A DNA stretch of 64,000 bases, taken from assembly GCA_965219445.1 (NCBI GenBank), contig CBDCNQ010000003.1:32001-96000 (forward strand), in the 5' to 3' direction. This document shows positions 16,255 through 42,215 of this stretch, one piece after another. A model generated the notes under the pieces. It was not told the origin of the DNA, searched no databases, and saw only the letters and a program-made list of their open reading frames with translations. The translations under genes were made by a program, and so were the position numbers. The stretch's first letter is position 1. Every line of letters starts with the position of its first letter. Source of the stretch: Longimicrobiales bacterium. Lineage in GTDB: Bacteria > Gemmatimonadota > Gemmatimonadetes > Longimicrobiales > Gaopeijiaceae.

Positions 16255-17358
16255 TCAGTGGCCCCCCCCGATCTCGGGCGGCCTAAAGGGTGTGTACTTC
16301 ACCAGACGTCGCCGGCTTACCTCACCCGCGTAGATGTTGCCGTCGAAATCCACGCCGAGGAACTCGACTCCCGCGCCAACGTCATCCTCATGGTGAGGAA
16401 TGAAGTGTGTCACCCAAGCCTGTTCGGTCTTCAGATCACCGATCCGGATGCCCTTCTCCCACCCCAGGTTGCTGCGCCACGGGTCTGGAGCCCCCGTACG
16501 GAAGCCACCCGACAGGCCATCGCCTGCGAAGAGGATATCATTGCGGTCGATGAATAGCCCGCTCGGCTTACCGTAGTGCGTCCAGATGTAGAGGAGCGTG
16601 CCCTGCTGGTCGAAAACCTGGATCCGGCTGTTGCCACGATCCGCGACCAAGACACGACCTTGGGAATCCATCTTGATGTCGTGCGGATCACTGAAGCGCG
16701 CGGCCTCCTTGCTCTCCGAACCGACACCGCCCCCGACTTCCAGGAGGAAAGTCCCGTCTCTCGAGAACTTCACGATGCGGTTGTTGCCGCCTCGATGCCC
16801 ATCTGACACCCAGACGTCCCCGTTGGGAGCGATCGCCACGCCGGAGGGTCCATTGAAGTGGTTGGGGCCGTCCCCCCAGATCCCGGCCTCGCCCAGCCTC
16901 ATCACGACCTCGCCCTGCTGGTTGAGCTTGAGCACCTGGTGACCCAAGCCCATGCTTTCACCCAACGTCGCTCGATTGTCCCCATGCGATCCTCCCTCGG
17001 TCACCCACAGGAAGCCCTCGCGATCCAGGGAAAAGCCGTGAGGAAACGCGAAGAGCCCTGCTCCGAAGCTGTCCACGAGATTCCCATCGAGGTCGAACTT
17101 CATGATCGGATCCAGGTCGGTGCCGGCGCATTCGTTCGCCCCACAGCGGTCCAGGATCCACAAGTGCTGTCCGTCTGGATCGGGGAAGACACCGCTCACC
17201 GTTCCCATCACTCTTCCTTCGGGGAGCTTCTCCCATCCGAAGCTGGCCCGATATGGGTTGGTGGTGGAGGATTGGGCGTTCAATTCTCCACCCAACACTA
17301 CGGATGACAGGGCAAAGCCGATAACGAGGGTCGAGCCAACTCGGCGGGCGCGCAGCAT
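16255..17358 (-). CDS. NHL-repeat PAL-like beta-propeller protein
   Basis: FPHG, PHDI, VADRGNSRIQVFD repeats; signal peptide. Confidence 0.85.
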   Translation of the reverse strand: MLRARRVGSTLVIGFALSSVVLGGELNAQSSTTNPYRASFGWEKLPEGRVMGTVSGVFPDPDGQHLWILDRCGANECAGTDLDPIMKFDLDGNLVDSFGAGLFAFPHGFSLDREGFLWVTEGGSHGDNRATLGESMGLGHQVLKLNQQGEVVMRLGEAGIWGDGPNHFNGPSGVAIAPNGDVWVSDGHRGGNNRIVKFSRDGTFLLEVGGGVGSESKEAARFSDPHDIKMDSQGRVLVADRGNSRIQVFDQQGTLLYIWTHYGKPSGLFIDRNDILFAGDGLSGGFRTGAPDPWRSNLGWEKGIRIGDLKTEQAWVTHFIPHHEDDVGAGVEFLGVDFDGNIYAGEVSRRRLVKYTPFRPPEIGGGH

Positions 17359-17528
17359 CTGGACCTCCTTGGAAAACTGTTTCCCTGTTCAACCACCCCG
17401 GACGACACCTGATGCATAGGCTATGAGGCGTCAGCTGCCTGGGCAAGAAGTCCCGTAGTAGATCTCCCATTCCGTCATGGTCACCCAGCGTGGAAGGCCC
17501 GACTTTAGGTTGAATCTAGGGGAAGAGT

Positions 17529-17556
17529 TGCTTACTCTTACCGGTAAGAGTAAGCA
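17529..17556. promoter_or_regulatory. Palindromic operator upstream of vapBC
   Basis: Perfect 28 bp palindrome TGCTTACTCTTACCGGTAAGAGTAAGCA, 18 bp before the antitoxin start. Confidence 0.75.
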
Positions 17557-17574
17557 CACAAGCCCGGGAGATCG

Positions 17575-17805
17575 ATGAAGATCACAACCAAGGGCCAAGT
17601 CACGATACCGCAGGAAATTCGCGAACGGCTCGGTCTGCTTCCGCACACCGAAGTCGATTTTGAGGTACGCGATGACGTGGTCGTGCTGAAGAAGGTGGAG
17701 GCCCGCCGTCGAGGCCGCAGGATCGTTGAGCACCTCCGGGGCCGAGGCGAGGTACGGATGAGTACCGATGAGATCCTCGCGCTCACTCGAGACGAGGAGC
17801 AGTGA
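17575..17805 (+). CDS. vapB: AbrB/MazE-type antitoxin
   Basis: MKITTKGQVTIPQEIRERLGL; overlaps the toxin start (GTGA). Confidence 0.88.
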   Translation: MKITTKGQVTIPQEIRERLGLLPHTEVDFEVRDDVVVLKKVEARRRGRRIVEHLRGRGEVRMSTDEILALTRDEEQ

Positions 17806-18218
17806 GCGACACCCTCGTAGACAGCAACGTTCTTCTCGACGTCCTGACGGAAGATCCGACGTGGTACGAGTGGTCATCCGAAGCCATCGAGTCTCGAGCG
17901 GAGCGCTCCGTGCTCGTGATCGACCCGCTCATATACGCGGAGGTTTCCATCCGGTTCGAGCGGATCGAGGAACTCGAAGAAGCACTGTCGCCGGCCATGT
18001 TCCGTAGGGACACTTTGCCCTGGGAGGCTGCGTTCCTGGCGGGCAAGTGCTTCGTACGGTACCGCAGGCGCGGCGGCGTGAAACACTCTCCGCTGCCGGA
18101 CTTCTACATCGGAGCGCACGCGGCGGTGGCGGGGATGACGCTACTCACGAGAGACGAATCCCGATATCGCACGTATTTCCCATCACTGGATATTTTCGCG
18201 CCGCTCCGAAGCTCGTAG
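17802..18218 (+). CDS. vapC: PIN-domain toxin
   Basis: LVDSNVLLD, PDFYIGAHA, LLTRD. Confidence 0.9.
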   Translation: MSDTLVDSNVLLDVLTEDPTWYEWSSEAIESRAERSVLVIDPLIYAEVSIRFERIEELEEALSPAMFRRDTLPWEAAFLAGKCFVRYRRRGGVKHSPLPDFYIGAHAAVAGMTLLTRDESRYRTYFPSLDIFAPLRSS

Positions 18219-18267
18219 TCGCCTGCTTTTCGGTGCCGTGAAGGCATAGCCAACACAAACGCGGCTG

Positions 18268-19428
18268 CTAGTACCGGCTGACCGTCAGGCCGAACCCACC
18301 CGGTTGAGGCCGGTCGGAGGCGTTCTCGAAGTATGCGGTGGCACGGAGGAACGACCCGAGCGGAGCGACCACCGGCTCGCGAAAGATATACGGTGTCGGC
18401 CACTCCAGCCGGATGTCCTTGGCGAACAAGAGGATCTCGGTGCCGCCATCAGGCCTGCGAAGGGACACCTCGAGAGACTGGATACCCGGTTCGAGCCGGG
18501 GCAGCAGGGATAGAAGGCGGGTCTCCTCGACGATGGGTGTCTCGGACCGAAAACGCTGCATGGTCGCGCCGGCCGGAACCTCGCCCCTCGCCTCCAGGAC
18601 CAGGTCGGAGGGCACGCTCAGTGCTGTTGCCGGCTCATCGGAGAAGAACAATCCGAGCCTTCCCTCGTCAACCACGCGTTGATCGGAGGCCCCGTAGTGG
18701 ATCTCGGCGAGGACCCTCGCTCCTGCGGCTAGCCTGTAGGTTACGCCTCCAGGCAGGGCCATGAACTCGTGCCACGGTGTCCAGCTTCCCAACCATTGGC
18801 CGGTCCCGTCCACGAAGAAAGTCGCTCCACGTACGACGCGGCGATCGCCCGGCCTGAACTCGATCCCACGAACGCGGCGCTCGGAGGTCAGTTCGAGATC
18901 GAGGACGATCCGCTCGACGCGCTCTTCTTGCTCCGGCTCGACGACCCTCGCCTCGAGGGTTCGGATCAGGCTGGGCTCGCCAAGCTCCCATCGGTCGAAG
19001 TCAGTAGTTGCCGTAGGGGCCTCCAGCGCCTCATCGGGATCTCTCACGTTGAGGAATACTTCCCCCGCGTTTCGTGGACCGAGCCCCTCCACCCATGAGA
19101 TGACGAACTGTGTCTCCCGCAGCGTGAGCCCGTTGTCGTTGACGAACTCTCCGTAACCGGGGACGGCTGCCCACGGAGGCATGTGCCGGGCGAGGACGGC
19201 GGTGCGAATGGGATCCCGACTCAGCCAAGTCTCCTCGTACGTCACCAGCGGCGATGCCAACCCCTCGGCGACGTGACATGTCACGCAGTGAGCGTCGAGG
19301 ATGCGCACGATCTCACGCTCGAAGAGGACTGTGTTGGTCGTCGTCACGTGAGTCAGCCCGCGCGACGGCCAGAAGACCCATCCCGCCAAAACGGATAGGG
19401 CGACGATCACGGGGGCGGGCTTCTTCAT
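18268..19428 (-). CDS. Haem c plus degenerate copper type II monooxygenase-like protein
   Basis: CVTCH, MPPW, EIHYG; homologous to 23770-25107 but lacking the HH, HxH and Met ligands. Confidence 0.7.
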   Translation of the reverse strand: MKKPAPVIVALSVLAGWVFWPSRGLTHVTTTNTVLFEREIVRILDAHCVTCHVAEGLASPLVTYEETWLSRDPIRTAVLARHMPPWAAVPGYGEFVNDNGLTLRETQFVISWVEGLGPRNAGEVFLNVRDPDEALEAPTATTDFDRWELGEPSLIRTLEARVVEPEQEERVERIVLDLELTSERRVRGIEFRPGDRRVVRGATFFVDGTGQWLGSWTPWHEFMALPGGVTYRLAAGARVLAEIHYGASDQRVVDEGRLGLFFSDEPATALSVPSDLVLEARGEVPAGATMQRFRSETPIVEETRLLSLLPRLEPGIQSLEVSLRRPDGGTEILLFAKDIRLEWPTPYIFREPVVAPLGSFLRATAYFENASDRPQPGGFGLTVSRY

Positions 19429-19434
19429 GGTCCG

Positions 19435-20475
19435 CTACTCGGAGGCCGTGACCGTAAAGGTGTAGGCGAACGTATAGACCTCATCGCGACGCTGGAACTG
19501 TGCCCACGCACGGTAAAGCCCCGGCCTCGGCATCAGTCCCTCGAACGTGATCTCCGGCCCACCGCGCAACCTCGAAGCATCGACCCCCATTGGGAGCATC
19601 AAAGCCAACGGCCCGGTCTCCTCGTCGGAGTTCTCCAAGTCGAGCGGGTGGGAGTGGACGTAGTGGACCAGATCGTCACTCATGATCAGCATATGACCGA
19701 ATGAGCCGAGGTACGGCTGGAGATCCGTCACCGGGCGCCCGGTTTCTGTCTCGGTCAGCTCGAACTTCAGGTGACCGTACAGTCCTGCAACGAACCTGTC
19801 GGGATCATAGGTGGCCCTGGCGGTGAGATCGCCGACCGACTTCGTGGGAGTGGTATCGGCAGCCACGCGCGCCGCGTCGGCCATCAGATCGCCGTCATAG
19901 TTGGCTGTGACCAAGGGCCGGGCGATGAATTGGGACGACCCGCCGTTCGGGACGAAGTCGGAAAGCAGCTTGTAATATCCGTCTTTGGGAAACGTCACTT
20001 CAATGGACCAGGAGCCATCGGGACCCTGCTCCGGATGAAGGTGCTCGAAGTGCTCCATGTCCTGGCTGATGACGAACAGGTGATAGCGCCTGTCGTGCAC
20101 GGTCACGAAGTCCCTCACCTGCTCACCCGTGCCAGGGTGGAGGATCCGGAACCTCAACCTCGCAGCCTCACCGGCGCGGACCACCGCGGGTTCGGTCTCG
20201 AACTCCAGCTCGTAGTCGCGAACGTCGTAGGGGTTCGCCTCGACCAGCATCATGCCGTCGCGGGGACACGTCCCGCCGATCTCAGACGTATAGTCCGGAT
20301 GGATGGGGCACACGTAGGCGACTTCCTCATCGGGATCCAATATGGGGGGCCCCATCTGAATCTCCGTGACCGGCACGTCCGCGACCGGCAGGGCCCTTCG
20401 TACTACGATCACGACCGTCGTCACCGCGGCCACGAGCAGGACCAGAACGATCCCAGATGTCAGTCTGGAGTTCAT
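19435..20475 (-). CDS. Heavy-metal-binding domain protein
   Basis: YVCPIHP...GTCPRDGMML, HLF...FEHLHP, GHM...YVHSHP. Confidence 0.75.
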   Translation of the reverse strand: MNSRLTSGIVLVLLVAAVTTVVIVVRRALPVADVPVTEIQMGPPILDPDEEVAYVCPIHPDYTSEIGGTCPRDGMMLVEANPYDVRDYELEFETEPAVVRAGEAARLRFRILHPGTGEQVRDFVTVHDRRYHLFVISQDMEHFEHLHPEQGPDGSWSIEVTFPKDGYYKLLSDFVPNGGSSQFIARPLVTANYDGDLMADAARVAADTTPTKSVGDLTARATYDPDRFVAGLYGHLKFELTETETGRPVTDLQPYLGSFGHMLIMSDDLVHYVHSHPLDLENSDEETGPLALMLPMGVDASRLRGGPEITFEGLMPRPGLYRAWAQFQRRDEVYTFAYTFTVTASE

Positions 20476-20490
20476 TCGAGCCCGAGCCCG

Positions 20491-22453: not shown

Positions 22454-22696
22454 CGATCCTCCCCTGGTCAGCGGTGGCGACCTCACGTCACCAATATCGC
22501 CGGCTCTGAGTGTACGATTGAAGCTGAGGGTAGACCTTGACATTGCTGGATTTCCATCATAAATGAGCGGCATGGGCTGCATCTCTTGACGAGAGCCCTT
22601 TTGATGGGTCGGGGTAAGGTGACGGGCTGGACAAAGCCGGTCAATATGAGGCCTCTTGCGCGAGGCGCTCGAGGGTTCTATCTGATTTGACGGGGA

Positions 22697-22736
22697 GCGC
22701 CAACCCTGTAGGTTAATCGCGCCAACCCTGTACGTT
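22697..22736. promoter_or_regulatory. Direct-repeat regulator site overlapping a putative promoter
   Basis: GCGCCAACCCTGTA(G/C)GTT twice with 22 bp period, TTGACG at 22687, in a divergent intergenic region. Confidence 0.5.
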
Positions 22737-22848
22737 TGATTGGGTACAAGAGTTAAGTTAGAGGTTCTTTACGTTCGTCCCGATGCGGGCACGTCAGCGA
22801 TCGGAACGGGGAGTTTCTGTACAAGAGAGTGAAGGAAGGAGGAGTTTC

Positions 22849-23751
22849 ATGAGGAGGACGCGTAACGTCGTTATGGCGTTGACGGCACTCACGATGGTGC
22901 CGTGGTCTCCTCTCGTGGGCCAGGTTGATAGGTTCGGGGGACAGGACGAACAGTTCGCCGACCAGTGGGCGCTCACGCCCTACCAATTCAGCCTGGTGAC
23001 CCTCAGGCCCAGGGGTCAGCCACTCATTCCCCTGTTCGAGGGTTGGTTCCCGAATCCGGATGGGACGTACGGCCTCTCCTTCAGTTACTTCAATATGAAC
23101 TTCGAGGAGACGTTCCACATTCCGATCGGACCGGACAACTTCCTCGAGCCCGCCGAATACAACGGGATGCAGCCGACGTACTTCATGACAGCGCAGCCCC
23201 GGGAGCGGGAGGGAGAACAGAGACACTATCGGCACCAGGCCGTCTTCACCGTGGACGTACCGGCGGATTTCGGGACGAATGATGTGATCTGGAACTTGCG
23301 TTACAAGGGCAAGGAGCTCCGCGTCCCGGGGCGACTCACGGTGGAAGGCAGTCGGATCGAAAATCTTACAGCCAGCACGAGCGCGCCGGAGGCACCGGTG
23401 CTCCAGTTCGAGCCCTCGGGCCCGGAGGGCAGAGGGCGATCCGGCGTAACGCTGGGTCCACTCACCGTCGCAGTAGGTGAGCCGTTGCCTTTGACTGTAT
23501 GGCTCGACCCGCTTTCCCGCACGGAGGGGGAGTTCATCGTTTTCTGGTTCGAGCACCAGGGACCTGTCGGCGTCGACTTCGAGGAGCGACGGTTCGACTT
23601 GCCGGCGGGCGGGGGCCAGGTGACGACGACCGCCAAATTCAGCGAGCCCGGGGAATACATGCTCCGGGTCACGGCGCTCGAAACGCTTTCTTCGATGGTG
23701 CAGCATTGCTGTTATACGAACAACTACGTGAAGATTACCGTCACCCCATAA
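22849..23751 (+). CDS. Secreted hypothetical protein (Ig-like C-terminus)
   Basis: Strong RBS, signal peptide, PLFEGW.NPDGT, C-terminal QHCCYTN. Confidence 0.8.
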   Translation: MRRTRNVVMALTALTMVPWSPLVGQVDRFGGQDEQFADQWALTPYQFSLVTLRPRGQPLIPLFEGWFPNPDGTYGLSFSYFNMNFEETFHIPIGPDNFLEPAEYNGMQPTYFMTAQPREREGEQRHYRHQAVFTVDVPADFGTNDVIWNLRYKGKELRVPGRLTVEGSRIENLTASTSAPEAPVLQFEPSGPEGRGRSGVTLGPLTVAVGEPLPLTVWLDPLSRTEGEFIVFWFEHQGPVGVDFEERRFDLPAGGGQVTTTAKFSEPGEYMLRVTALETLSSMVQHCCYTNNYVKITVTP

Positions 23752-23769
23752 CAAAAGGGGAAACACATT

Positions 23770-25107
23770 ATGGACCGCATGACAAACATGACAAAGCAGA
23801 GGGCGTCGCATGGCCTTTGGATCACGGCCCCGATCTTCCTTCTGATGGCTGTGCTCCAGCCGCAGCCCGCGTTCGGACAGGACGCCACGTGGGCTGAGCA
23901 TGTCGCACCTATCATGTACGCGTCGTGCGTGGAGTGTCATCAGCCGGAAGGCATCGGCCCCATGTCGCTTCTCGACTACGAGACGGCCAGGACATACGCG
24001 CCGTTGATCAAGTTCATGGTCGAGACGCGCCAGATGCCGCCGTGGCACATCGACAAAGACGTGGGGATTCAGGAGTTCAAGAACGACATCTCCCTCTCGG
24101 ACGAAGAGATCCAGAGAGTCGTCGCGTGGGCTGACGCCGGTGCGCCGCAGGGAAACATGTCGCTGGCTCCGCCCGTTCCCGTGATGCCGTCCGGCGCCGA
24201 CTGGCGGCTTGCAGAGCGGTTCGGCCCGCCGGATCTGATCATCAGGTCGGATCCGTTCGACGTGCCGGCGAGCGGCCTGGACAACTGGTGGCCCCATCAG
24301 GTGGAGGTGGAGGGACTCGACGGCCCTCGGTGGGTCATGGCGAACGAGACTAAGCCTTCCTATCCCTTGGGCAAGAGGGTCGTCCATCACGCGAACAGCA
24401 GCCTCATTACGGAGGACGGTCGGAACGGCTTTTCCAACTACGGGATCGGCAAGCCCTTCGACATCTACCCTGAGAATACAGGGGCGCTGATCCAGCCGGG
24501 AAACCGCCTGAGCTTCAACATCCACTACTACCCCAACGGTGAGGCCGTTGAGGGCGACGTCGTCGAAGTCGGACTATGGTTCTACCCGGAGGGCGAGGAG
24601 CCCCGGTTCAAGACGAGGGGCGATGTCTCCTGGAGCTCACAGCGGCAGTACGAAGGCGACGATGGCATGACTCTGCAGCAGATCGTCATCCCGCCCCACG
24701 GCCGTACGATAACTCAAGGGTTCCACGTGCTGGAAGAGAATACGCGAATCCACAGCTGCCGTGGCCACATGCACCTGCACGGTGCGGCACAGTCGATGGA
24801 AGCGATCTTTCCCGACGGTCACATGGAAATTCTGTGCAAGGTGAACTGGAACGGTGAATGGCACATCACGTACCTCTTCGAAGACGACGTGATGCCGTTG
24901 CTGCCCAAGGGCACGGTGCTCGTTCTCACGGCCTGGTATGACAACACGGCCGCCAATCCGGTGAACCCCGATCCAGACCAGTGGGTGATCTTCGGCAGGC
25001 GCAGTGCCGACGAGATGTCGCACATGTGGATCGGCGCCACCTATCTGAACGACGAGGACTTCGAATACCTGAAGGCCCAGCGGCCGCAGTTGCTTCTGGA
25101 GCCGTAA
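23770..25107 (+). CDS. Haem c-fused copper type II (PHM-like) monooxygenase
   Basis: CVECH; VVHHA and NIHY (CuH-type), GHMH and DEM (CuM-type) in PHM order. Confidence 0.82.
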   Translation: MDRMTNMTKQRASHGLWITAPIFLLMAVLQPQPAFGQDATWAEHVAPIMYASCVECHQPEGIGPMSLLDYETARTYAPLIKFMVETRQMPPWHIDKDVGIQEFKNDISLSDEEIQRVVAWADAGAPQGNMSLAPPVPVMPSGADWRLAERFGPPDLIIRSDPFDVPASGLDNWWPHQVEVEGLDGPRWVMANETKPSYPLGKRVVHHANSSLITEDGRNGFSNYGIGKPFDIYPENTGALIQPGNRLSFNIHYYPNGEAVEGDVVEVGLWFYPEGEEPRFKTRGDVSWSSQRQYEGDDGMTLQQIVIPPHGRTITQGFHVLEENTRIHSCRGHMHLHGAAQSMEAIFPDGHMEILCKVNWNGEWHITYLFEDDVMPLLPKGTVLVLTAWYDNTAANPVNPDPDQWVIFGRRSADEMSHMWIGATYLNDEDFEYLKAQRPQLLLEP

Positions 25108-25262: not shown

Positions 25263-25916
25263 CTACCTGAGCATCCTCGGAAGTCCCTCTGCCTCGAGGA
25301 GGAGATAGACGTGTGCTTCGAGCTGCTGTAGGCCCGCCTCCCCTTCCAGCGCCAACCGCCCATCACCGTCCGAGTCCGCGCCTTCACCGATCTGGTACAT
25401 CAAGAGGCGCAACTGGGCGACGAGTGGCGAGGCCCGCCGCATCGACGGCGCCGCCTGCAGCGCCCGAGCGACAGCCGCCGCTTCTTCTCCGCGCCGCGCG
25501 ACTGTGCCAGCGATCGTGGTGATGTGCTGCGCGTGAGTGCGCACGCCCGCTGAGGCACCGTCCGAGTTCGCCGCCAACCCGATGTGGGTTGCCACGCCTT
25601 CGGTGGCGGGGATGAGACCGAAGCCCAGCCCAGGCCCCCGGCTTCCTTCAGCCGGGTCGAGTGCATGGAGAACGTGACCTGCGTGCCGTTGCATCGCCGC
25701 AAGGTTGCTGAGATCGCCGGCCGCAAAATTGGCATGCAGCATCGCGATTCCCAATTCGGTCGCGGCCGTGGCGGCGAGACCCTGTCCATCAGGGGCCCGG
25801 CCGAAGCTGGTGGCGACATGCCCAACGTGGGCATTCTGAGCCACCACCGAGGTTCCCGGGAGCGCCACGGAGAGCGTCACGACGAAGGCGCCGAAATCGC
25901 AAAGACGGATTTTCAT
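25263..25916 (-). CDS. Secreted His-rich helical hypothetical protein
   Basis: Signal peptide; paralog of 30395-31048. Confidence 0.75.
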   Translation of the reverse strand: MKIRLCDFGAFVVTLSVALPGTSVVAQNAHVGHVATSFGRAPDGQGLAATAATELGIAMLHANFAAGDLSNLAAMQRHAGHVLHALDPAEGSRGPGLGFGLIPATEGVATHIGLAANSDGASAGVRTHAQHITTIAGTVARRGEEAAAVARALQAAPSMRRASPLVAQLRLLMYQIGEGADSDGDGRLALEGEAGLQQLEAHVYLLLEAEGLPRMLR

Positions 25917-25928
25917 GGTTGGGTCTCC

Positions 25929-26957
25929 TTAGAAGTTGGGAACGTGTTTTTCGAGCATCCGCCTACGAACAACCGCCCCATAGACGTTCCCTTCGGAATC
26001 CACCCCGACGCCTTCCGCCCCACTGTGCTCGATCGAGGTGGATTCGATGTCCTCGATGAGGTACAGAACCGTACCGTCCCGCGCGTCACCCACGCGGATG
26101 CCTTTCTTCCATCCCGGGTTGTCGGTCCCCCACGATTCGGAATCGGCGACATAGATCATGTCATCGTCGGATATGGCGATGCCGCTGGGGCGACTGAACT
26201 GGTACCAGACGTCGAGGAAATTCCCCTGCTGATCGAAGATCTGAATCCGGTTGTTCATACGATCCCCGACGAACACGCGGCCTTGCGAGTCGAGGGCGAT
26301 CGTATGCGGCACGATGAACTCCCCCTCGCCCGAGCCCGTCGTTCCCCAAGACATGATGAACCTACCGTCGCTCGAGTACTTCGAGACTCGGTTGCCACCC
26401 TGACCGTGACCCTCAGTGACGAAGAAGTTGCCGTTCGGGGCCACCACCAGGTCCGTCGGCTGGGTGAGAAGCCTGGGTGGATCCCCCTGAGTGCCCTTCT
26501 GGCCGAGCGTCATCAGGAGCTCACCCTCCGCGGTCCACTTGAACACCTGGTGGCCGCGCTGATCGCTTGCCCACACGTTTCCTTCGTCGTCCACGTCGAA
26601 CCCGTGCGGGAAATCCATCATCCCCGAACCCCACGTCTTCAGTACTCTTCCGGAATGATCGAGCTTCAGGACCGGTGGTTCGGATCGTCCGGTGCACGAG
26701 TTCTGGAGGCAGCGGCCCAGAAGGTAGATGTTACCGTCGGGACCCTGTTCCGCTCCGATGAACGACGCCCGCTCATCGTACGGACCAGTGGGGAGCTCGC
26801 CCCATGGATGGACTCGCCCGTAGGGGTTAGGCAGTGCGTTGGTCGGGCTGATCTGCGACTGGTCCTGTAACTGGGCCAGCACCTCTCCCGACTGTAGCGC
26901 CGGTACTCCAACGAGCGCGGCACTTGCCAGGAGTGCCGTTCGAATCGAACGAAGCAT
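25929..26957 (-). CDS. NHL-repeat PAL-like beta-propeller protein
   Basis: FPHG, VPHTI, VGDRMNNRIQIFD. Confidence 0.85.
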   Translation of the reverse strand: MLRSIRTALLASAALVGVPALQSGEVLAQLQDQSQISPTNALPNPYGRVHPWGELPTGPYDERASFIGAEQGPDGNIYLLGRCLQNSCTGRSEPPVLKLDHSGRVLKTWGSGMMDFPHGFDVDDEGNVWASDQRGHQVFKWTAEGELLMTLGQKGTQGDPPRLLTQPTDLVVAPNGNFFVTEGHGQGGNRVSKYSSDGRFIMSWGTTGSGEGEFIVPHTIALDSQGRVFVGDRMNNRIQIFDQQGNFLDVWYQFSRPSGIAISDDDMIYVADSESWGTDNPGWKKGIRVGDARDGTVLYLIEDIESTSIEHSGAEGVGVDSEGNVYGAVVRRRMLEKHVPNF

Positions 26958-27151
26958 CGAACTCCTCCTTAAAGAGAACGACGAAGAGGACGGCGAGACG
27001 GCAAAGAGCCGTCCGGGCCTAGCCAAGGTAGAAGGGGATCTTGTGGAGCGCGAGGCCAGGAACGTAGCCGGGGTCGCATCGCCGCGTGGGTGAGAGTACG
27101 TTGCATCGTCCTGCTTTCAGGCCGACCCGCCCCGCGAAGTTGGAGGACCCC

Positions 27152-28873
27152 TTGAAGATTCGAACCCTCATGCTTGAACTCTGCCTTCCCTGGGCGATGC
27201 TCGCCATCCTCGTCGTGGGAACCGAGGCAGTGGCCCAAACGCAGCTACCGGAGTGGGAGCCGATCACGATGGAGCGGCTGCTGAACCCGGAGGACGGCGA
27301 CTGGCTGAACTACCGGCGCACCTATGACGTGTTCGGCTTCAGCCCCCTGGAACAGATCAACAGGACGAACGTTCAAGATCTTCGACCGGTCTGGTCCTAC
27401 TCGATGCGGGATAACAGCCGATGGATACCCACGCCGGTTGTCGCGAACGGGCTCATGTATGTCGCCGAGGGCAGCGGCCGCGTAGTCGCCTTCGACGTAG
27501 TCTCGGGTGACGTCGCGTGGATACACGAGCGGAGCTATCCCGAGGACATCCAGGTTTCCCAGGCCTACCGCCGGCACCGTGGTGTCTCCGTCTACGACGA
27601 CAAGATCTACTGGGGGACGGCCGACTCCTACCTGGTCGCCCTGGACGCGCGCACGGGGGAACAGATCTGGGAGGTCAGGACGGGTGACTACCATACGGGC
27701 ATAGGCCACAACCACCCTCCCTTGATCGCCGAAGGCAAGATCATCCTGGGATTCACCGGGGGTGACCGTGGCGCCCGCGGTACAATCGCCGCGCACGATC
27801 CCCAGAGTGGTGAGCTGATCTGGAAGACCTACACCGTTCCCGCCCCGGGTGAGCCCGGTTCGGAGAGCTGGAAGGATAGTGACTACCCACCACTCGGTGG
27901 GGCGACGTGGGGCACGCAAAGTTACGATCCCGAGTTGGGGTTCGTCTATTTCGGCACCGGTCAGCCGAGGCCCTGGTCTTCGACGCTTCGCGGTCTTGGC
28001 GATGCGTTGTACACGAACTCGGTCATCGCGCTCGACATCGAGAACGGCGAGATGCAGTGGTACTTTCAGGTCGTTCCGGAAGACAATTGGGACATGGACT
28101 CCCCGTACGAGAGCACCTTGGTCGATCTGGTCATCAATGGGGAAGTCCGTCAGGTCCTCATCCATACCAGCAAGATTGGTTGGGGCGTCGTGTTGGACCG
28201 GGAGACGGGCAACTTCATTCACTCATTCAGGACCGCCTACGACAATCTCATTATGGGTTGGACCGAAGAGGGGCGCCCGATCTTCAACCCGGATCAGATC
28301 CCTACACCGGCGGATGTCGACTCCGACAAAGTCTTCGAGGTGTGCCCGCACTATCACGGGGCGAGGAATCTGAATTCGCCGAGCTACAGTCCGCTCACGG
28401 GACTGTATTACATGGGCCTCAACAACAGCTGCATGGACGTCAATTTCGTCTCGGAGGAGCCGGGAGGGAGATACGCTGGCATGAGAGGCAGTCCCAAACT
28501 GGTGCCCGGCTACGACCACGTAGGGGAGTTCGTAGCCTTCGATCCGATCACGGGGGAGCGGGCATGGGAGTACCGACTGCCGAGCGGGGCCGCGATGACG
28601 GCCGCCGCGCTGGCGACGGCAGGTGGCGTCGTGTTCGGGGGAGCTGCGGATCGTCGGTTTTTTGCACTCGACACGGACACGGGGGAGGCCCTTTGGGAGA
28701 TGCGCTTGAACGGCGACATATCCGGTGCCCCGGTCACCTTCGAGGTCGGGGGGAGGCAGTATGTCGCTGTCGGCGCGGGTGGTCGTATCGCCCAGACAAC
28801 TTCGTACGCTCGGCTGACGGGTGAGAATATTCCGCAAGGAAGCGGCGTCATGTGGGTGTTCGCCCTGCCATAG
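27152..28873 (+). CDS. PQQ-dependent alcohol-dehydrogenase-like quinoprotein
   Basis: FSPLEQINRTNV, GGATW..SYDP, DNWDMD, GRQYVAV; no vicinal CC; TTG start after GGAGG. Confidence 0.88.
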   Translation: MKIRTLMLELCLPWAMLAILVVGTEAVAQTQLPEWEPITMERLLNPEDGDWLNYRRTYDVFGFSPLEQINRTNVQDLRPVWSYSMRDNSRWIPTPVVANGLMYVAEGSGRVVAFDVVSGDVAWIHERSYPEDIQVSQAYRRHRGVSVYDDKIYWGTADSYLVALDARTGEQIWEVRTGDYHTGIGHNHPPLIAEGKIILGFTGGDRGARGTIAAHDPQSGELIWKTYTVPAPGEPGSESWKDSDYPPLGGATWGTQSYDPELGFVYFGTGQPRPWSSTLRGLGDALYTNSVIALDIENGEMQWYFQVVPEDNWDMDSPYESTLVDLVINGEVRQVLIHTSKIGWGVVLDRETGNFIHSFRTAYDNLIMGWTEEGRPIFNPDQIPTPADVDSDKVFEVCPHYHGARNLNSPSYSPLTGLYYMGLNNSCMDVNFVSEEPGGRYAGMRGSPKLVPGYDHVGEFVAFDPITGERAWEYRLPSGAAMTAAALATAGGVVFGGAADRRFFALDTDTGEALWEMRLNGDISGAPVTFEVGGRQYVAVGAGGRIAQTTSYARLTGENIPQGSGVMWVFALP

Positions 28874-31048: not shown

Positions 31049-31217
31049 GTGAGCCCTCCAACTGGAAGAGCGAGACGGGCACCAGGGCACTGTCGTCCCA
31101 GGGCGGGGGAACCAGGTCGTCCCGCGGGTGGAGTGATCTTGGCATGTGGGGGTGCCGCTCGGCAACTCCTGATCCGTGCCGACCGTCTGGGGGCTCCGGA
31201 CGTGGCGTCCTCTCCGG

Positions 31218-32234: not shown

Positions 32235-33359
32235 ATGCGCAATTCAAGACCTCTAGTGGTTTCAATGCTCGTCGGTTTACTCGCCGTGTTCCTTCCCGGA
32301 CCAGCTTCGTCTCAGGATCTTGGACCGGTTGGCCCCAGCCCTTATGACGTCGTCGAAGGGTGGCAGAAGCCATTCGCCAAGCAGGGCTTCGCGTTCGGCG
32401 GTAATTCGGGTGTATTCGCCGAATCGCCAGATCGCATCTTCATCTCACAGCGTGGCGAAACCAGATTGCCCATCCCGATTCCCCCAGAATTCGCGGGATA
32501 TGCGGGATCCCTCGGGATCAACACTTTACGGGCTACCGATCTGCGCACGTGGCAGAACTGCCTGTATACAATGGATGGTGATGGCAATGTGATCGACGTC
32601 TGGGACCAGTGGGACTACTTGTGTGCCGGGTCAGAAGGACCTGGACCCCACAGGCTTCGCATAAACCCTTACGATCCCGAGCGTCGTGTGTGGCTCGTCA
32701 ACGAGACCTTTCACCAGATTTACGTGTTCTCCAACGACGGCAGCGAACTGCTGATGACGCTGGGTGAGAAAGACACCCCAGGAGACGACGAGACCCATTT
32801 CGGCAGGCCGCAGGACGTGGCTTTTTTACCGGACGGAAGAGTTCTGGTGGCTGATGGGCTGGACAATCATCGCGTCATCATCCTGGATAACGAGGGAAAC
32901 TATCTGTCAGAGTTTGGAGGGTACGGAGACGGGCCCGGTCAATTCAATGGCATTCACGCGATAGGTATCGGGCCCGATGGTCTGATCTTCGCCCTCGATC
33001 GCTCGGGGGGTCGAGTCAACGTGTTCAGGACCACAGACGATCCGAAAGAAGTCGAGTTTGTGGATGTTTGGGGCGGTTTTGGCCTGACTTTGGACATCAT
33101 TGTCAACGAGGATAGCATCTGGATAACCACCCTCGGACCGCTCAGGTTCGTCAAGATGGACTTCGAGGGTAATCGGCTATACACGTGGCATGTCCCCAGG
33201 GAACTACCGAATGGGTATCTCGAAGTGCACACGATTACGGTCGACTCCGAGGGTAATCTCTACGGAGGGGACAATCAGTATGGCCGGACTCAAAAGTTCG
33301 TAGCCAAGCCTGACGCAGATCCGGAATTGATCATCGGGCCGCCGTGGGTAGCACGTTGA
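32235..33359 (+). CDS. NHL-repeat PAL-like beta-propeller protein
   Basis: GPHRL, FGRPQDVAF, GIHAI, EVHTI. Confidence 0.85.
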   Translation: MRNSRPLVVSMLVGLLAVFLPGPASSQDLGPVGPSPYDVVEGWQKPFAKQGFAFGGNSGVFAESPDRIFISQRGETRLPIPIPPEFAGYAGSLGINTLRATDLRTWQNCLYTMDGDGNVIDVWDQWDYLCAGSEGPGPHRLRINPYDPERRVWLVNETFHQIYVFSNDGSELLMTLGEKDTPGDDETHFGRPQDVAFLPDGRVLVADGLDNHRVIILDNEGNYLSEFGGYGDGPGQFNGIHAIGIGPDGLIFALDRSGGRVNVFRTTDDPKEVEFVDVWGGFGLTLDIIVNEDSIWITTLGPLRFVKMDFEGNRLYTWHVPRELPNGYLEVHTITVDSEGNLYGGDNQYGRTQKFVAKPDADPELIIGPPWVAR

Positions 33360-34489: not shown

Positions 34490-36700
34490 TTAGGGTTCGC
34501 CTAACCGGAACACGTAGAGGGCATTGGCCTCAGGACGACTCACGAATTCCGTCGCCAGGAACGTTGCTATGCGCCACGGACTCCCACCATTCCGCGCTGC
34601 CGTCATGGCAATGTACTGCACGCCGTCCACCTCGAAAGTCATCGGGAACCCCTGGACCGAAGTACCGAGCCGGGTCTCCCAGAGCACGTCTCCCGTTTGG
34701 ATGTCATGGGCCCTGAACCATCTGTCATAGGATCCGGCGAACGCGAGTCCACCCGCAGTCGTCAACGCTCCTGTGAGGAAGGGCGCCCTCTGTTCGATAC
34801 TCCACACCTCTTCCAACGTCTCCACATCGAACGCCGCGAGCTTTCCAACCATCCCGTCCGTTCCGGGCATCTCCTTCCACGCGCGCTCCCCCCCACTGCC
34901 GCCCCCTCTACCTGGCTCCAGGACAACTTCGCGTCCGGTCATGTCCATGCAGCTTTGGCTCAGTGGAAGCACGATGAGGCCCGCATCCGGAGAGTAACTG
35001 GACGCCTGCCAGTTTTTCCCCCCAGCCGTAGAGGGGCACACCGACACCCACTCGCCTAACCTCGCGTTCGTGATATCGTCCCTGTATTGCACCGCGCCCG
35101 TTTCGGGATTGATCGAGAGAATGTTCTGGAAGACCGTCTCCTTCATACCCAGGAACGTCCCGTCTCGCCTGTCGAGCTTCCAGAGTACGCCATGTTTGCC
35201 GGTGGTGAGGAGGGAAGGCACGCCGTCGATGTCCGCGAGAACCTGCTCGAATCCTTCGTCCATGTCCAAGGACTCGCCCGGAACGTGCTGGCGGTACCAC
35301 ACAATGCGTCCGGTCTCCACATCGAGGGCCAGGGTCGAGTTCGCGTAGAGCGTCGAGTCGGCGGTGGTGAGCCCTCGGCTAGCGGCCACCCACGGCTTCG
35401 CCTGCGCGGTACCGAAGTAGACCAGGCCTAGATCGGGATCCCAGCTGCCGCCATTCCACAGTTCCCCCCCCGCTCGTAGCTCGAACGGGAGGTCGCCCCA
35501 GGTGTCTCCACCCGGCTCGCCGGGCCGAGTGATCACCTCGGTCTGCCAAAGAAACTCGCCATTACGGACGTCGTGGGCGCTGACAAAGCACTTTTGTTCG
35601 ACGAATCTGCCGCAACCGTTGACCCCGTTGATCACCTTCCCGTCGGCTATGATGGGTCCCGCAGTGTTACTGACCCCCATCTCTGGAGTCTCCCAGCGAA
35701 CGACTCCGGTCGGAGCGTCCAACGCGACGATCGCTCCGTCGGGCGTGGACGCGAGAACGAGATCCCCCCAAAGAGCGACGCTTTGCACCCGTTGACCGAT
35801 GTTGGCGTCCTTTCTGCGGTACTCCCACAGGAGCGTGCCGTCTGTGCCGTCCAGCGCCTGCACGGAGCCACCCGCAGTGGTCAGGAAGAGAATGCCCGAT
35901 CTCTCGAGAGCTGCGGTCCGGTACCGGCTTCCATCGGGCAACGCCCAGACCCAGGCAAGCTGCAGGCGATGGACGTTCTCCGTATTGATCTGCGTCATGG
36001 GGCTGAAACCGGTCGACCCGGGAGAGCCTCGCCAATGCAGCCAGTCTCCATCGGGAGGCGAGGCCAGATCGGCGTCCGTCACCGGAGCAAACCGCTCCGG
36101 CGTGCGAAACGTCTCCGTGACGCTCGTGGCGGTTTCAGATAACGAGCCAAGAAATTCAGGCGGAGCCTGTCTCGTGTCCGGCGAACGGATCGTCCCGACC
36201 CGGCCGGGAATCGGAGGAATACCCCCCACAATCGTGGCTGCGGCCTGCGCACCCGGAATCACCGTTCCGCTGGAAGCCATGCTCAGTTGAGTTCCGCCCG
36301 CCGGTACCTCGTTCGCTCGCAGCAAATACGCCACAACCGAGGAGACCTGCTCGGTGCTCAGAGAGCCGGCAGCTTCGGGCGGCATGGTGGCCGCGATCAG
36401 CTCGAGTAGATCGCCCACCGGCCGGCCACCCCACTGGTTTCGGAAGTTTGGGCCGGCCAGCTCAGGAGCCTCGAACGAGCCCTGGAAATCCGTCAGGTGA
36501 CACACCGAGCACGTGCTCTGATACACAGCCGCCCCGGCCTCGGCCTGGGCGTTCGTGTAGGACCCCGAAGGCTGCTGCCCGGAGGCGGGGGTCGCCCATA
36601 GGATCACCACGCTCAGTGAGAGCGCAGAGAGAATGCACAGGCCGGCCCTTGTTAGATTCTCCGGGTACGAACGAACTAGCATCAAGTTGGGGAAATTCAT
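34490..36700 (-). CDS. Cytochrome c-PQQ dehydrogenase fusion
   Basis: N-terminal CSVCH domain followed by a PQQ propeller ([21 protein letters not shown]). Confidence 0.88.
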
Positions 36701-36895
36701 CTGTTTTCCCGCCTCCAGCGGATGGGCAACGGTGGGATCGCGCGCTGAGCGGCGCATCCATAAATAACCGAGCTCCGACTCAGAAGCCCCCCGAGATGCG
36801 CGTCGGACACTGGCACATTGAGGGTTGTCATACCCTTTCGTCAATGGCACCAGAGGGTTTGGCTCAGATCTCAGTGATCCACGACAAAGTGAATC

Positions 36896-39751: not shown

Positions 39752-39927
39752 GGCGCACAAGATGAGTCCGAGAGGTGTGGGGCTGCAAGCACCTTCTCAG
39801 CAGATCTAGCTCGCCTTTTCAGCAGTTGGCTCGCCAGCTACTTTGCCCCGGCCAGCCTCAGGCGGGCCGGTCGCCGTTCTTTACGGTGAGCCTGACATCG
39901 TCCACGGAACGAAAAGTGAGGGCCGAC

Positions 39928-40821
39928 ATGACACGCAAAAAGGCGAGCGACTTCGATCAGGGGCTTCTCGATCTGTTCGATAAGTACGTTCACGGTTTCA
40001 TCAACCGCCGTCAGTTTCTCGACCGTGCCTCGGCCTTCGCCGTAGGGGGTGTTTCCGCCGCCTCCCTGCTGGAGAGCCTGAGCCCCAACTACGACGATCG
40101 CCAGCAAGTGAGGAGTGACGACGCGCAGGTGAGCGGAGAGTACGTCGAGTACTCCTCGCCGCGGGGCGCCGGCACGATGCGCGGATACTTGGTGCGACCG
40201 GCGGGTTCGGACGGTGACTTGCCAGGCGTGGTCGTGGTTCATGAGAATCGAGGCCTCAACCCGTACATCGAGGATGTCGCACGCCGTGCAGCGCTCGCCG
40301 GATTCCTGGCGTTCGCGCCCGACGCGCTTACGCCGCTCGGCGGCTACCCCGGCAACGATGACGACGGTCGTACGCTTCAGGGCCAGCGGGATCGCGCCGA
40401 GATGCAAGAGGATTTCGTTGCGGCCGGAGGCTTCCTGAAATCCCACGAAGAGTGCACCGGGAACATCGGCGTGGTGGGCTTCTGCTACGGTGGTGGGATC
40501 TGCAACATGATGGCCGTGCGCATCCCTGACCTCGGGGCTTCGGTTCCCTTTTACGGAAGTCAACCCGCGGGAGAGGACGTAGACAGAATCAACGCGCCGC
40601 TGCTCATCCACTACGCGGGTCTGGACGAGCGAATCAACGCCGGATGGCCCACCTATGAGGCCGCGCTACAGGCCCACGACAAGACGTACACGATGCACAT
40701 GTACGAGGGCGTCAATCACGGATTCCACAACGACACGACGCCCCGTTACGACGAAGCAGCGGCCACGTTGGCATGGCGGCGGACCATCGACTTCTTCAAC
40801 CGGACGTTGCGCGGAATGTAA
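39928..40821 (+). CDS. Dienelactone hydrolase family (YghX-like)
   Basis: [32 protein letters not shown]. Confidence 0.9.
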
Positions 40822-40867
40822 GTCGCTTGCCCCATTGACCTCCGCAGCCGAGAGAGCGGTTGGTCCG

Positions 40868-40909
40868 CCGAGGGTTTTGGGGTCCCAAGTGGGACCCCAA
40901 AACCCTCGG
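40868..40909. repeat. Perfect 20 bp-arm palindrome between convergent genes
   Basis: CCGAGGGTTTTGGGGTCCCA-AG-TGGGACCCCAAAACCCTCGG. Confidence 0.85.
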
Positions 40910-40964
40910 GTTACGTGCCGCCCGACGTTCCCTTAGATCGGCGTCAGCTTCTGATCGGGCACAG

Positions 40965-42215
40965 TCACCAAGCCACACGCAGCTGCCGTCCCACGATCTT
41001 CGCAGGGTCGGCGCCGGGCCTCGGGACGAACTTTTGTACCCGGCCGGCGAACACTTCCGAAATGTACAGGTTGCCGTCCCGATCGGTCGTGATCGAGTGC
41101 GGGCCGTTGAAGTGCCCGTAACCGTCGCCCGGGGTGCCCCAGCCATAGATGTAATTTCCCGCCAGATCGTACTTCAGCATTCGGCCTGAACTGCCGTCCG
41201 CTACCCAAAGGAAGTCCTCTCCTGTCGGATCCTGGAGAATCTCGATCGCGTACGGGAGAGACTCCCCCCGCATGCCAGTCGGGAACATGAACTGGTAGTT
41301 CCCGTTCTCGTCGAACACCTGGATCCGCGCGTGAGCCCGATCCGACACATAGATCAACCGGTCCGCACTGATCGTGATGGCGTGGACGGTGTTGAACTCG
41401 TTGGGACCCGGGTTGGCGGGATCGGCCGGGGCCTCGCCCCAATCCATGATGAAGTTGTCGTTGGCGTCGAACTTCGCTACGCGCGTTCCGACGTAGCCGT
41501 CACTGATGAAGTACGTCCCGTCGGGCAGCCAGGCGATGTCCGTCGGGCGCGCGAAATTGTTCGGCCCGCGTCCGGGCATACTCCGCTCTCCATGTGTGAG
41601 CACCAGCTCCCCGTCGTAGGTGAACTTGTGGATCTGATGGAGGTTGTCGTCGACGACCCAGATGTGCTTCTCCGGGTCGTAGGGGTTCATCTTGATCTTG
41701 TGCGGTCCGCGCCCGCCCCGTACGTCGAAGAGTTGGTCGTGCTGCGGCCAATATTCGACAAGCTCTCCTTCGGAATTCACAGCGATCATGACGTGCAGGT
41801 ACCGCCGCTCATACCCGCGAACTCCGTTATCGTCGTTGGGCGACGAGTTCCCGCGGGAGGGGTCCAGGAGGGCGTAGGGTGTCCACGGATCCGCCCCTTC
41901 CGGGAGCGGGAGCTCTCCGCGCATGGCGATCCAGATTCGGTCTGTGCTCTCGGCAAAGACCGCCCCCATGGACCCCCAGGTCCAACCGTCGTGGGAGTGG
42001 TCGTCGTCCGGCAGAGGCTGCGGGAACGGCTCAGGTCGGCTGTAGTGGCCGAACAGCTCCTGCCCGTCATGCACCAGCATGCCTTCCTGCATGCTGCTCA
42101 TGGCCATGACTTCGCCTCCTGACCCGGTCTCCTGCGGTGTACAACCCGCAGTCAAGACGACCCCAAGGACCGCAACCAACGTCAGCAGCTTGGAACACCG
42201 ATACGATGAACTCAT
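40965..42215 (-). CDS. NHL-repeat PAL-like lipoprotein with the full PAL motif set
   Basis: Lipobox TAGC; GPHKI, SDGY, TVHAI, SDRAHARIQ, GPHSI. Confidence 0.85.
   Translation of the reverse strand: MSSSYRCSKLLTLVAVLGVVLTAGCTPQETGSGGEVMAMSSMQEGMLVHDGQELFGHYSRPEPFPQPLPDDDHSHDGWTWGSMGAVFAESTDRIWIAMRGELPLPEGADPWTPYALLDPSRGNSSPNDDNGVRGYERRYLHVMIAVNSEGELVEYWPQHDQLFDVRGGRGPHKIKMNPYDPEKHIWVVDDNLHQIHKFTYDGELVLTHGERSMPGRGPNNFARPTDIAWLPDGTYFISDGYVGTRVAKFDANDNFIMDWGEAPADPANPGPNEFNTVHAITISADRLIYVSDRAHARIQVFDENGNYQFMFPTGMRGESLPYAIEILQDPTGEDFLWVADGSSGRMLKYDLAGNYIYGWGTPGDGYGHFNGPHSITTDRDGNLYISEVFAGRVQKFVPRPGADPAKIVGRQLRVAW

Follow-up and report, generated by a model that had tools for sequence, protein, structure and literature searches.

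Does this Longimicrobiales genome encode a bacterial counterpart of PAM, and if not, what is the haem-bearing copper monooxygenase that suggested one? The original prediction joined the monooxygenase, a set of PAL-type propellers and PQQ dehydrogenases into a single periplasmic pathway. PHM and DBH are non-coupled binuclear copper monooxygenases. Enzymes of this type are regarded as eukaryotic in the available text of PMC8812541, while bacterial PALs with real activity are described, without a natural function, in that of PMC10900485. The DNA studied comprises positions 32,001-96,000 of the forward strand of contig CBDCNQ010000003.1 (Longimicrobiales bacterium, GCA_965219445.1). This whole stretch of 64,000 nt is termed the window, positions are counted within it, and genes are named by the start of their coordinates (Table 1).

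Table 1. Predicted features of the window and the basis of each assignment
Position	Strand	Predicted feature	Basis or remark
11270..13423	-	Third PQQ-type dehydrogenase, outside 16255-42215	Family matches
16255..17358	-	NHL propeller, H/E type	Pfam NHL, motif
18268..19428	-	Monooxygenase paralogue without copper ligands	HHalign 99.8%
19435..20475	-	Secreted protein, YxCPxHP..CPxDGM heavy-metal-binding-like motif	Weak domain match
22849..23751	+	Constant partner, predicted second subunit, two Ig-like domains	Adjacency, predicted complex
23770..25107	+	Haem c-fused PHM/DBH-type two-copper monooxygenase, 445 aa	Motifs, homologues, fold match
25263..25916	-	Secreted His-containing protein, no known family	Paralogue 30395-31306
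25929..26957	-	NHL propeller, H/E type (Tyr>His, last His>Glu)	Pfam NHL, motif
27086..28873	+	PQQ-type dehydrogenase, no haem, no vicinal Cys	Family matches
32235..33359	+	NHL propeller, three His and Arg, Tyr>Leu	Pfam NHL, motif
34490..36850	-	PQQ-type alcohol/aldehyde dehydrogenase, N-terminal haem c, quinohaemoprotein-like	Candidate electron donor
40965..42215	-	NHL propeller, full PAL residue set (R-H-Y-H-R-H)	Alignment and motif

The predicted monooxygenase and its partner

The product of 23770 begins with a signal peptide followed by a class I cytochrome c domain (C53/C56/H57/M89), which holds the haem motif C53-x-x-C56-H57 and a conserved MPPW Met. Motif reading places the putative CuH ligands at H206/H207/H252 and the CuM ligands at H333/H335/M416, confirming the predicted succession of CxxCH, HH..H and HxH..M in PHM order; R331 precedes H333 by two residues, as R240 precedes H242 in PHM. 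The haem motif, the Met and all six copper ligands are retained in 92/94 homologous ORFs of the fetched loci, a level of conservation that, judged from sequence, is far beyond chance. Within its own genome the ligand set is intact in 19 of the 21 monooxygenase-family genes. The helical cytochrome domain is equally constant, with C23, C26, H27 and M59 (model numbering) invariant across 103 homologues, and the host encodes cytochrome c maturation genes. The R240-equivalent position is variable among relatives (R, Q, E and others).

Sequence identity with PHM is just 13-16%. Pfam and NCBIfam at default cut-offs gave no match for 23770, and a search of solved structures gave none with the sequence alone and matches only at E>0.1 with a profile; across its homologues Pfam assigns a cytochrome c domain to 101/103 and, by weak matches, Cu2_monoox_C to 74/103. 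The structural model (pLDDT 90) superposes on rat PHM with Z 19.9/19.6 and rmsd 2.8-3.0 Å over 246-247 residues, the best fit placing residues 112-401 onto PHM 45-328 (Z 19.9, rmsd 2.8), and PHM 314 corresponds to M386 of the model when read from the ends of the aligned range (400 to 328). The closest unrelated family reaches only Z 8.2, and DBH and PHM rank first in Foldseek. The original assignment to the PHM type is upheld by this fold match (Z 19-20, some 246 residues aligned), and by its model 23770 has a PHM-type copper monooxygenase fold with all six ligands, the fused haem c being the likely point of electron entry to the coppers.

With PHM (1PHM, 1OPM, 1SDW) and DBH (4ZEL) the modelled 23770 shares a double jelly-roll core (Z 19-20), the order of its His3 and His2Met ligands and a secreted location, and with PHM the Arg two residues ahead of the first CuM His. 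Unlike either, it is bacterial, has ascorbate/DOMON replaced by a fused class I cytochrome c, has a constant Ig-like partner predicted to lie over the CuM-side loops, is without the disulfide-rich frame and belongs to a family with a conserved His two residues past the CuM Met and up to 35 copies per genome. The literature searched, in which subscription journals are mostly not covered, contains no characterised bacterial haem-fused PHM. RNA run X1 yielded two 325-nt contigs at a depth of ~3, which were not accepted as expression of 23770 because the data consist of contigs only, the run was retrieved by matching the studied stretch and DNA carry-over is possible.

Two genes were overlooked in the earlier reading, the partner at 22783-23751 and the ligand-less paralogue at 18268-19428. 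The partner ORF was called from 22783, has an ATG at 22849 preceded by AGGAG and ends 19 bp before 23770. Its product is secreted and comprises two Ig-like β-sandwiches with the motifs FEGW..NxDG, GQPTHF and a C-terminal HCCYT (HCCxT). On the same strand it adjoins a monooxygenase in 15/15 copies in its own genome, 68/70 in four relatives and 74/80 loci from three phyla, and in 14 further genomes it is adjacent at 23/23 hits with matching copy numbers. About a quarter of monooxygenase hits (27/97) have no partner alongside, and three loci hold a partner without a monooxygenase. Identities of the two proteins covary across 14 pairs (Mantel rho 0.87), a co-divergence expected of neighbouring genes from tandem duplication alone.

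The predicted complex with 23770 scored 0.88 against 0.01 for the best control, on a scale whose mark was passed by 116/157 solved pairs and 2/215 mismatched pairs; partner pLDDT was at least 82 and contact agreement between runs at least 47%. Conservation of the partner is lower at its interface positions than averaged over the whole protein (0.46 vs 0.62). On this modelling the 22783 product is predicted to bind 23770 as a second subunit. Profile search and Foldseek found no specific solved relative of the partner, a wide structural search returned generic Ig folds only, with the N-terminal domain barely covered, and its Atlas clusters carried no name. Its C-terminal sandwich resembles PKD/Ig-like proteins (Z 8-10.7 to many unrelated proteins), from which it differs in being proposed, by prediction, as an enzyme subunit. 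One whole partner clade lacks the CC of the C-terminal motif; the idea that the cognate monooxygenases supply both Cys was dropped, their Cys pair lying on a hairpin outside the predicted interface.

NHL propellers, quinoproteins and other neighbours

All four NHL propellers combine a Pfam NHL match with an N-terminal hydrophobic stretch, in agreement with their predicted secretion, and 40965 is likely a lipoprotein. Its PAL-type residues are R117, H190, Y259, H296, D310-R311 and H391. The claim that the PAL set is complete stands, four residues aligning directly with rat PAL Y654, H690, R706 and H786 (numbered via a 491-residue offset between 3fvz and 5wm0) and the counterparts of H585 and R533, just before the alignment start, being assigned by motif only. 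The substitutions reported for the other propellers were also recovered: 32235 reads DGL, while in 16255 and 25929 the motif is DGH/EGH and the last His is replaced by Glu, such that the catalytic Tyr is missing from all three and the third Zn His from the latter two. With PAL (rat 3FVZ; Exiguobacterium ExiPAL) 40965 shares the Zn His, Tyr and Arg within an NHL propeller, whereas the H/E and Leu variants depart from PAL in lacking the Tyr. In contrast to PAL in PAM, 40965 is neither fused nor consistently adjacent to a monooxygenase and has no dedicated PHM link. It lies 15.9 kb from 23770, its orthologues in genomes G005 and G007 are 21-26 kb from any monooxygenase, and a back-to-back arrangement with a monooxygenase module occurs only in G006. 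Among the 40 NHL genes of the genome 16 are PAL-complete, and just 1/21 monooxygenases has such a gene within 300 bp.

Of the three PQQ dehydrogenases originally listed, one is indeed haem-fused, but only two fall within 16255-42215. The propellers resemble soluble PQQ dehydrogenases (4CVB, 7WMD, 4MH1, 9M2C; E 1e-83 to 1e-91), and 34490 bears a haem c domain like type II quinohaemoproteins (1KV9), from which it differs in the N-terminal position of the haem, the lack of vicinal Cys and a host that would import PQQ. Searches of the genome for the PQQ synthesis genes pqqC and pqqE found neither; a PqqU-type importer is present and carries the published signature F99/K274/R304/R365. In a paralogous clade the partner, the monooxygenase and a haem/PQQ gene form an operon, seen at 5/80 loci (one from Thermoanaerobaculia) and in G000, G005, G008 and G010. 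Given the importer and this operon clade, a quinoprotein is a plausible source of electrons for the monooxygenase haem; together with the fused haem c, they leave the proposed replacement of ascorbate standing as far as a plausible donor is concerned.

The paralogue 18268 retains CxxCH and MPPW without the HH, HxH and Met, and as CxxCH is present in 120/120 homologues it reads, at sequence level, as a conserved subfamily rather than a decayed copy. Directly upstream is 19435, whose assignment as a metal-binding protein holds at the level of its motif, the domain match being weak (E 0.0026, below cut-off). The same gene pair occurs in G006, and a search of the phylum sample did not find 19435 in 200 other genomes. 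Proteins described as His-rich contain only about 4.6% His; the 25263 type has four copies in the genome.

Genomic distribution and competing readings

The monooxygenase family numbers 21 genes in this genome, the NHL family 40 and the PQQ-like family 36. In G000 the distance of NHL and PQQ genes from monooxygenases is no shorter than that of other secreted families (p 0.19-0.8, label shuffle), in single-contig G005 they show no enrichment over random placement, and linkage of NHL to PQQ genes is not above the null. An apparent enrichment under a uniform-random null was rejected as an island effect because the label-shuffle null removed the signal; DUF5916 and cytochrome 2725 controls were equally enriched. 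Clustering of NHL and PQQ genes to this degree arises anyway from the secreted-protein islands of this genome. The reading of the window as one PAM-like pathway is thus not supported: as in the refuting case that the original prediction set out, its families are largely just abundant, and 40965 lies far off.

Across genomes, PAL-like NHL propellers are present in 15/15 pair-bearing genomes and 15/106 others (121 genomes), a pattern among kin that may reflect lifestyle. A single malate synthase G sits amid monooxygenase modules in 6/8 genus genomes having this gene, and isocitrate lyase was not found in 4/5 genus genomes searched. Malate synthase is missing from 12/14 other pair-bearing genomes of the phylum sample and was rejected as a general marker outside the genus, tblastn matching just 2/117 loci. 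The NHL co-occurrence, the operon clade and the malate synthase synteny are looser hints that favour a link of lyase and quinoprotein to the monooxygenase.

One form of such a link would be a closed redox module in which the haem c/PQQ dehydrogenase (34490) oxidises the alcohol or aldehyde arising from hydroxylation by 22783 and 23770 and lyase cleavage and passes the electrons back to the haem of the monooxygenase, one particular NHL protein (40965) acts as lyase and glyoxylate goes on to malate synthase G. Besides these hints, it could draw on G006, where orthologues of 23770 (85%) and 22783 lie back-to-back with those of 34490 (83%) and 40965 (89%), and on haem-fused PQQ-like genes, of which 2/6 have a monooxygenase no more than 200 bp away, compared with 1/30 others. 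However, neither the G000 nor the G005 comparison gives enrichment, the next downstream gene is PQQ-like in only 8/80 loci and NHL in 1/80, the operons of the paralogous clade mostly end with an H/E-type NHL gene without the PAL Tyr, and the genome-level co-occurrence is among kin. We consider this arrangement unlikely. A dedicated bacterial PAM, in which 23770 would act on glycine-extended peptides as hydroxylase and 40965 would set free amidated signals or natural products, appears very improbable. No catalytic residue of PHM or PAL is missing, Arg occupies the R240 position, and active bacterial PALs are known in the available text of PMC10900485, but the 15-35 monooxygenase paralogues per genome fit substrate scavenging better, PAL-complete propellers are almost never close by, and neither a RiPP transporter nor a dedicated protease stands beside the pair. 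The lack of a precursor noted originally also persists, as four of 40 short ORFs with an RBS have a C-terminal Gly, each of them shadow-frame-like, although peptide substrates might come from the environment.

We also regard as improbable that the pair is no oxygenase and instead serves electron transfer, sensing or copper handling as a haem-copper complex, with the vicinal Cys of the partner binding Cu(I) or forming a redox disulfide. The 18268 subfamily, which keeps the haem and the fold, adjoins a heavy-metal-binding protein and is fused to CusF in 2/120 homologues, would fit such a role, as would the partner CC, kept in 95/99 locus ORFs with the adjacent H264 inside the predicted interface. 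Against it, almost no homologue departs from the asymmetric His3 / His2Met ligands that mark non-coupled binuclear monooxygenases, and the monooxygenases of the CC-less partner clade retain all copper ligands.

A model for a probable two-subunit haem-copper hydroxylase

The best reading of the family is as expanded periplasmic two-subunit haem-copper hydroxylases, and 23770 with 22783 probably forms one, likely hydroxylating C-H bonds of small organics for catabolism. O2 would be activated at CuM and the second electron supplied from CuH, while the His/Met haem c would re-reduce the coppers instead of ascorbate, itself fed by a periplasmic cytochrome pool that may include quinohaemoproteins on scavenged PQQ. 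The partner, placed over loops beside the CuM Met, may shape or close the substrate cleft, and the 15 pairs of the genome would represent diversified isoenzymes. In the available text of PMC12164859, PHM Arg240 forms a salt bridge to the substrate carboxylate. Since Arg occupies this position, the substrate of the 23770 clade may bear a carboxylate, for example an N-acyl- or N-alkyl-glycine; as the residue varies, a glycine-type substrate cannot apply to the entire family. The carbinolamide product would then either decompose by itself or be split by a PAL-like lyase, one of a common pool not dedicated to the locus.

More speculatively, and with considerable doubt, Gemmatimonadota, Acidobacteriota and some Gammaproteobacteria may possess a large catabolic system that is periplasmic and depends on O2. 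Its heterodimeric haem-copper monooxygenases, belonging to the PHM line and regaining electrons from quinohaemoproteins that use scavenged PQQ, would attack N-linked C2 units in dissolved organic matter by hydroxylation, and diversified PAL-like lyases would yield glyoxylate or aldehydes for malate synthase G or the dehydrogenase. If true, the two halves of animal PAM would both have their prokaryotic source in such a system, which would include an ascorbate-free, self-reducing PHM. A bacterial PHM would offer a possible ancestor of PAM and perhaps a biocatalyst for amidation without ascorbate. With as many as 35 copies in a genome, the family implies a major part in the carbon or nitrogen supply of uncultured hosts. 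In a soluble, haem-bearing bacterial PHM the long-disputed route of electrons to CuH and CuM could also be followed optically, and such an enzyme would inform the question of open-versus-closed chemistry, and for its expression the overlooked partner is probably needed as a co-expressed subunit.

Constant adjacency of the monooxygenase and its partner

The haem c-fused, PHM/DBH-type monooxygenase 23770 and the partner gene 22783 belong to families that are constantly adjacent. Each of the 15 partner paralogues in the source genome has a same-strand monooxygenase no more than 149 bp away, and across four relatives a monooxygenase adjoins 68 of 70 partner genes. Conversely, 70 of 97 monooxygenases in these relatives have an adjoining partner, the 19 weakest-scoring ones all standing without; for these counts, 15 of 85 and 11 of 108 match rows, being secondary fragments or weak matches, were merged or dropped. 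Loci retrieved with the partner profile, which are non-independent, have an adjacent monooxygenase in 74 of 80 cases. Two of the remaining six lie at contig ends, one has a monooxygenase 1 kb away and three have none, a PAL-complete NHL propeller (R-H-Y-H-R-H residue set) lying directly upstream of the partner in these three. This order, with no monooxygenase within 6 kb, is seen in three related Vicinamibacterales loci (L072, L083, L090). Across 121 sampled genomes of the phylum, the partner and a full-length monooxygenase occur in the same 15, with distant N-terminal matches only in five more, and every partner match outside the source genome (23/23) adjoins a monooxygenase. Identities of the two proteins co-vary (rho 0.87, 14 pairs, one identical duplicate excluded).

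The partner is modelled as two Ig-like sandwiches (pLDDT 91), for which structural searches returned no specific relative. Together, 22783 and 23770 are predicted to form a heterodimer with a complex score of 0.88, the best of three controls scoring 0.01; the mark set for this score is reached by 116 of 157 solved pairs and 2 of 215 mismatched pairs. Contact agreement between runs was at least 47%, with partner pLDDT at least 82. The prediction favours, rather than demonstrates, binding of 22783 to 23770. On the monooxygenase side, the predicted interface is formed by residues 134-146, 271-286 and 370-383 in mature numbering, and the third of these ranges stops three residues short of the CuM Met. 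On the partner side it extends as far as H264 of an HCC motif. These ranges suggest that the partner may cap the substrate cleft. In G007, monooxygenase and partner matches share an 837-aa open frame (C6:96363-98570), possibly a natural two-subunit fusion. A divergent clade (C3:153347-158499 and C5:1390693-1393145 of the source genome; L110-L112) has partners without the vicinal CC and monooxygenases in which SNM/ANM replaces DEM, with Glu at the R240 position and a Cys pair of their own.

Features discussed, in window coordinates unless a contig or locus is named
Feature	Coordinates	Strand	Remarks
Window	G000:C3:32001-96000		genome 4.56 Mb; GC about 62%
Partner	22783-23751	+	ends 19 bp before monooxygenase 23770
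Monooxygenase 23770	23770-25107	+	hydrophobic N-terminus
PqqU-type TonB-dependent receptor	G000 C5:1128051-1130246 (L116:2052-4247)		E 7e-71 to PqqU; next transporter 4e-17
Partner-monooxygenase-haem/PQQ operon, then sole malate synthase G	L117:2238-9491 (G000:C5)		block kept in six genus genomes (L118-L122)
Group II intron reverse transcriptase/maturase	9657-11159	+	ordinary mobile element
Integrase-core IS transposase	45830-47283	-	ordinary mobile element
Secreted His-containing paralogues	25263-25916, 30395-31306	-	helical-looking; no Pfam family; 4 copies in G000
Ferredoxin-adenylate cyclase region	59047-60045	+	ORFs seemingly out of frame; possible frameshifts
M1 peptidase region	47576-50089	-	ORFs seemingly out of frame; possible frameshifts
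Secreted LVIVD-repeat-like gene	20491-22582	-	split by frameshift in C run near 21040
Ligand-less module 18268/19435	18268-20475	-	conserved pair; also L115

A predicted PHM-type fold

Searches of Pfam, NCBIfam and PDB sequences with 23770 gave no match at default cut-offs. Its sequence contains C53xxC56H57, MPPW (M89), H206H207, H252, H333xH335 and M416. Homologues in the alignment, built from 102 of 120 listed matches (5106 matches among 8000 scored), match cytochrome c in 101 of 103 cases and, weakly, Cu2_monoox_C in 74 of 103. The AlphaFold2 model (pLDDT 90.1, pTM 0.87) has a helical domain (11-92) and two beta-sandwiches, and DBH and PHM take the top ranks in Foldseek. A structural aligner superposes it on PHM with Z 19.9 and rmsd 2.8 A over 246 residues (identity 13-16%), PNGase F being the next family (Z 8.2); a PHM-type fold is thus predicted. 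By motif order and the ends of aligned ranges, the ligands were assigned to those of PHM, H107/H108/H172/H242/H244/M314. The six ligands, Met and haem motif are intact in 19 of 21 source-genome paralogues (the other two are 18268 and a gene truncated by a contig end) and in 92 of 94 ORFs of the fetched loci, where both exceptions are truncated. By motif position, R331 corresponds to the carboxylate-binding residue of PHM in the clade of 23770; Q, E or another residue stands there elsewhere in the family. PMC12164859 names H107, H108, M314 and R240 of PHM. We infer that 23770 works like PHM/DBH through copper chemistry, with the haem as its reductant and a catabolic role. The literature searched contained no characterisation of a bacterial haem-fused PHM, and PMC8812541 describes PHM distribution as eukaryotic.

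A secreted-gene island

The original prediction read 16255..42215 of the window as one candidate PAM-like pathway, in which PQQ dehydrogenases supply electrons to the monooxygenase and PAL-type lyases complete the reaction. In the source genome, 21 genes belong to the monooxygenase family, 40 to the NHL and 36 to the PQQ-like family; monooxygenase matches also occur in each of the 11 further genomes of the genus (2-35 per genome). Compared with uniform placement, more NHL and PQQ genes than expected lie close to monooxygenases, and the same holds for the DUF5916 and cytochrome 2725 controls. When labels were permuted among the 134 secreted-family genes, this linkage disappeared: within 2 kb of a monooxygenase lie 7 of 40 NHL (4.9 expected, p 0.19), 6 of 35 PQQ (4.3 expected, p 0.26) and 3 of 16 PAL-complete NHL genes (2.4 expected). 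With split pieces merged, the corresponding NHL counts are 2 of 29 in single-contig G005 (1.1 at random) and 1 of 38 in G007. NHL and PQQ genes therefore have no specific linkage to monooxygenases, and the cluster is an island in a stretch abundant in secreted-protein genes rather than a demonstrated pathway; 23770 does not belong to a PAM in the sense of two linked enzymes. Named related loci are from Gemmatimonadota, Acidobacteriota and a few Gammaproteobacteria, which makes a Gemmatimonadota host likely. A contig of run X3 is one base shorter at the C run in the LVIVD-repeat-like gene and identical elsewhere, so the split reflects strain variation or an assembly slip.

The NHL residue calls were borne out: PAL-complete in 40965, which matches Y654, H690, R706 and H786 of rat PAL, Tyr>Leu in 32235, and Tyr>His with last His>Glu (H/E type) in 16255 and 25929. 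The source genome has 43 NHL matches, 40 of at least 250 aa, of which 16 are PAL-complete and 18 H/E. The H/E subtype (R-H-H-H-R-E; 16255, 25929 and 16 more) occurs as often as the PAL-complete one, and its His3/Glu metal site points to a separate, undescribed family of lyases or hydrolases. Bacterial PAL activity is established, its natural function being unclear (PMC10900485).

Possible electron supply and hints of a wider pathway

Some arrangements are consistent with a lyase/quinoprotein pathway. In G006, orthologues of 22783/23770 stand back-to-back with those of the haem c-fused dehydrogenase 34490 and of 40965, an arrangement not found in G005 or G007. Another clade has partner-monooxygenase-haem/PQQ(-H/E NHL) operons, an orthologue of 25929 (70%) lies no more than a few kb from the pair in six loci of Acidobacteriota, and NHL propellers occur in 15/15 pair-bearing versus 15/106 other genomes of the phylum sample, kin not being independent. 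The sole malate synthase G of the source genome lies 230 bp downstream of one such operon, and in 6 of 8 genus genomes having the enzyme it is within about 7 kb of monooxygenase modules, often between them. Isocitrate lyase was not found in four of five genomes searched, the fifth giving a partial match. This synteny is post hoc and confined to a single genus, and malate synthase is absent from 12 of 14 other pair-bearing genomes of the phylum sample, which weighs against a general pathway marker.

Cytochrome c maturation genes are present. The dehydrogenases 34490 and 27086 are nearest to soluble PQQ alcohol dehydrogenases; pqqC was found neither in the source genome nor in 12 relatives of its family (0/15 pair-bearing versus 26/106 other genomes of the phylum sample), and pqqE gave no match over cut-off in the source genome. 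The PqqU-type receptor keeps F99, K274, R304 and R365, the signature given in PMC12124388, which reports PqqU from both Vicinamibacteria and Gemmatimonadetes. With such an importer, the dehydrogenases could be true quinoproteins using imported PQQ, and may donate electrons to the monooxygenase. Alongside it the source genome encodes 36 PQQ-like genes, and PQQ synthesis genes were not found there.

The paralogue 18268 (HHalign 99.8%) follows 19435, a protein with a heavy-metal-binding motif, in the window and in G006. All 120 listed homologues of 18268 keep CxxCH and have lost the copper ligands, and two are fused to CusF. This haem c/PHM-fold protein and 19435 may form a pseudo-enzyme or an electron/copper relay.
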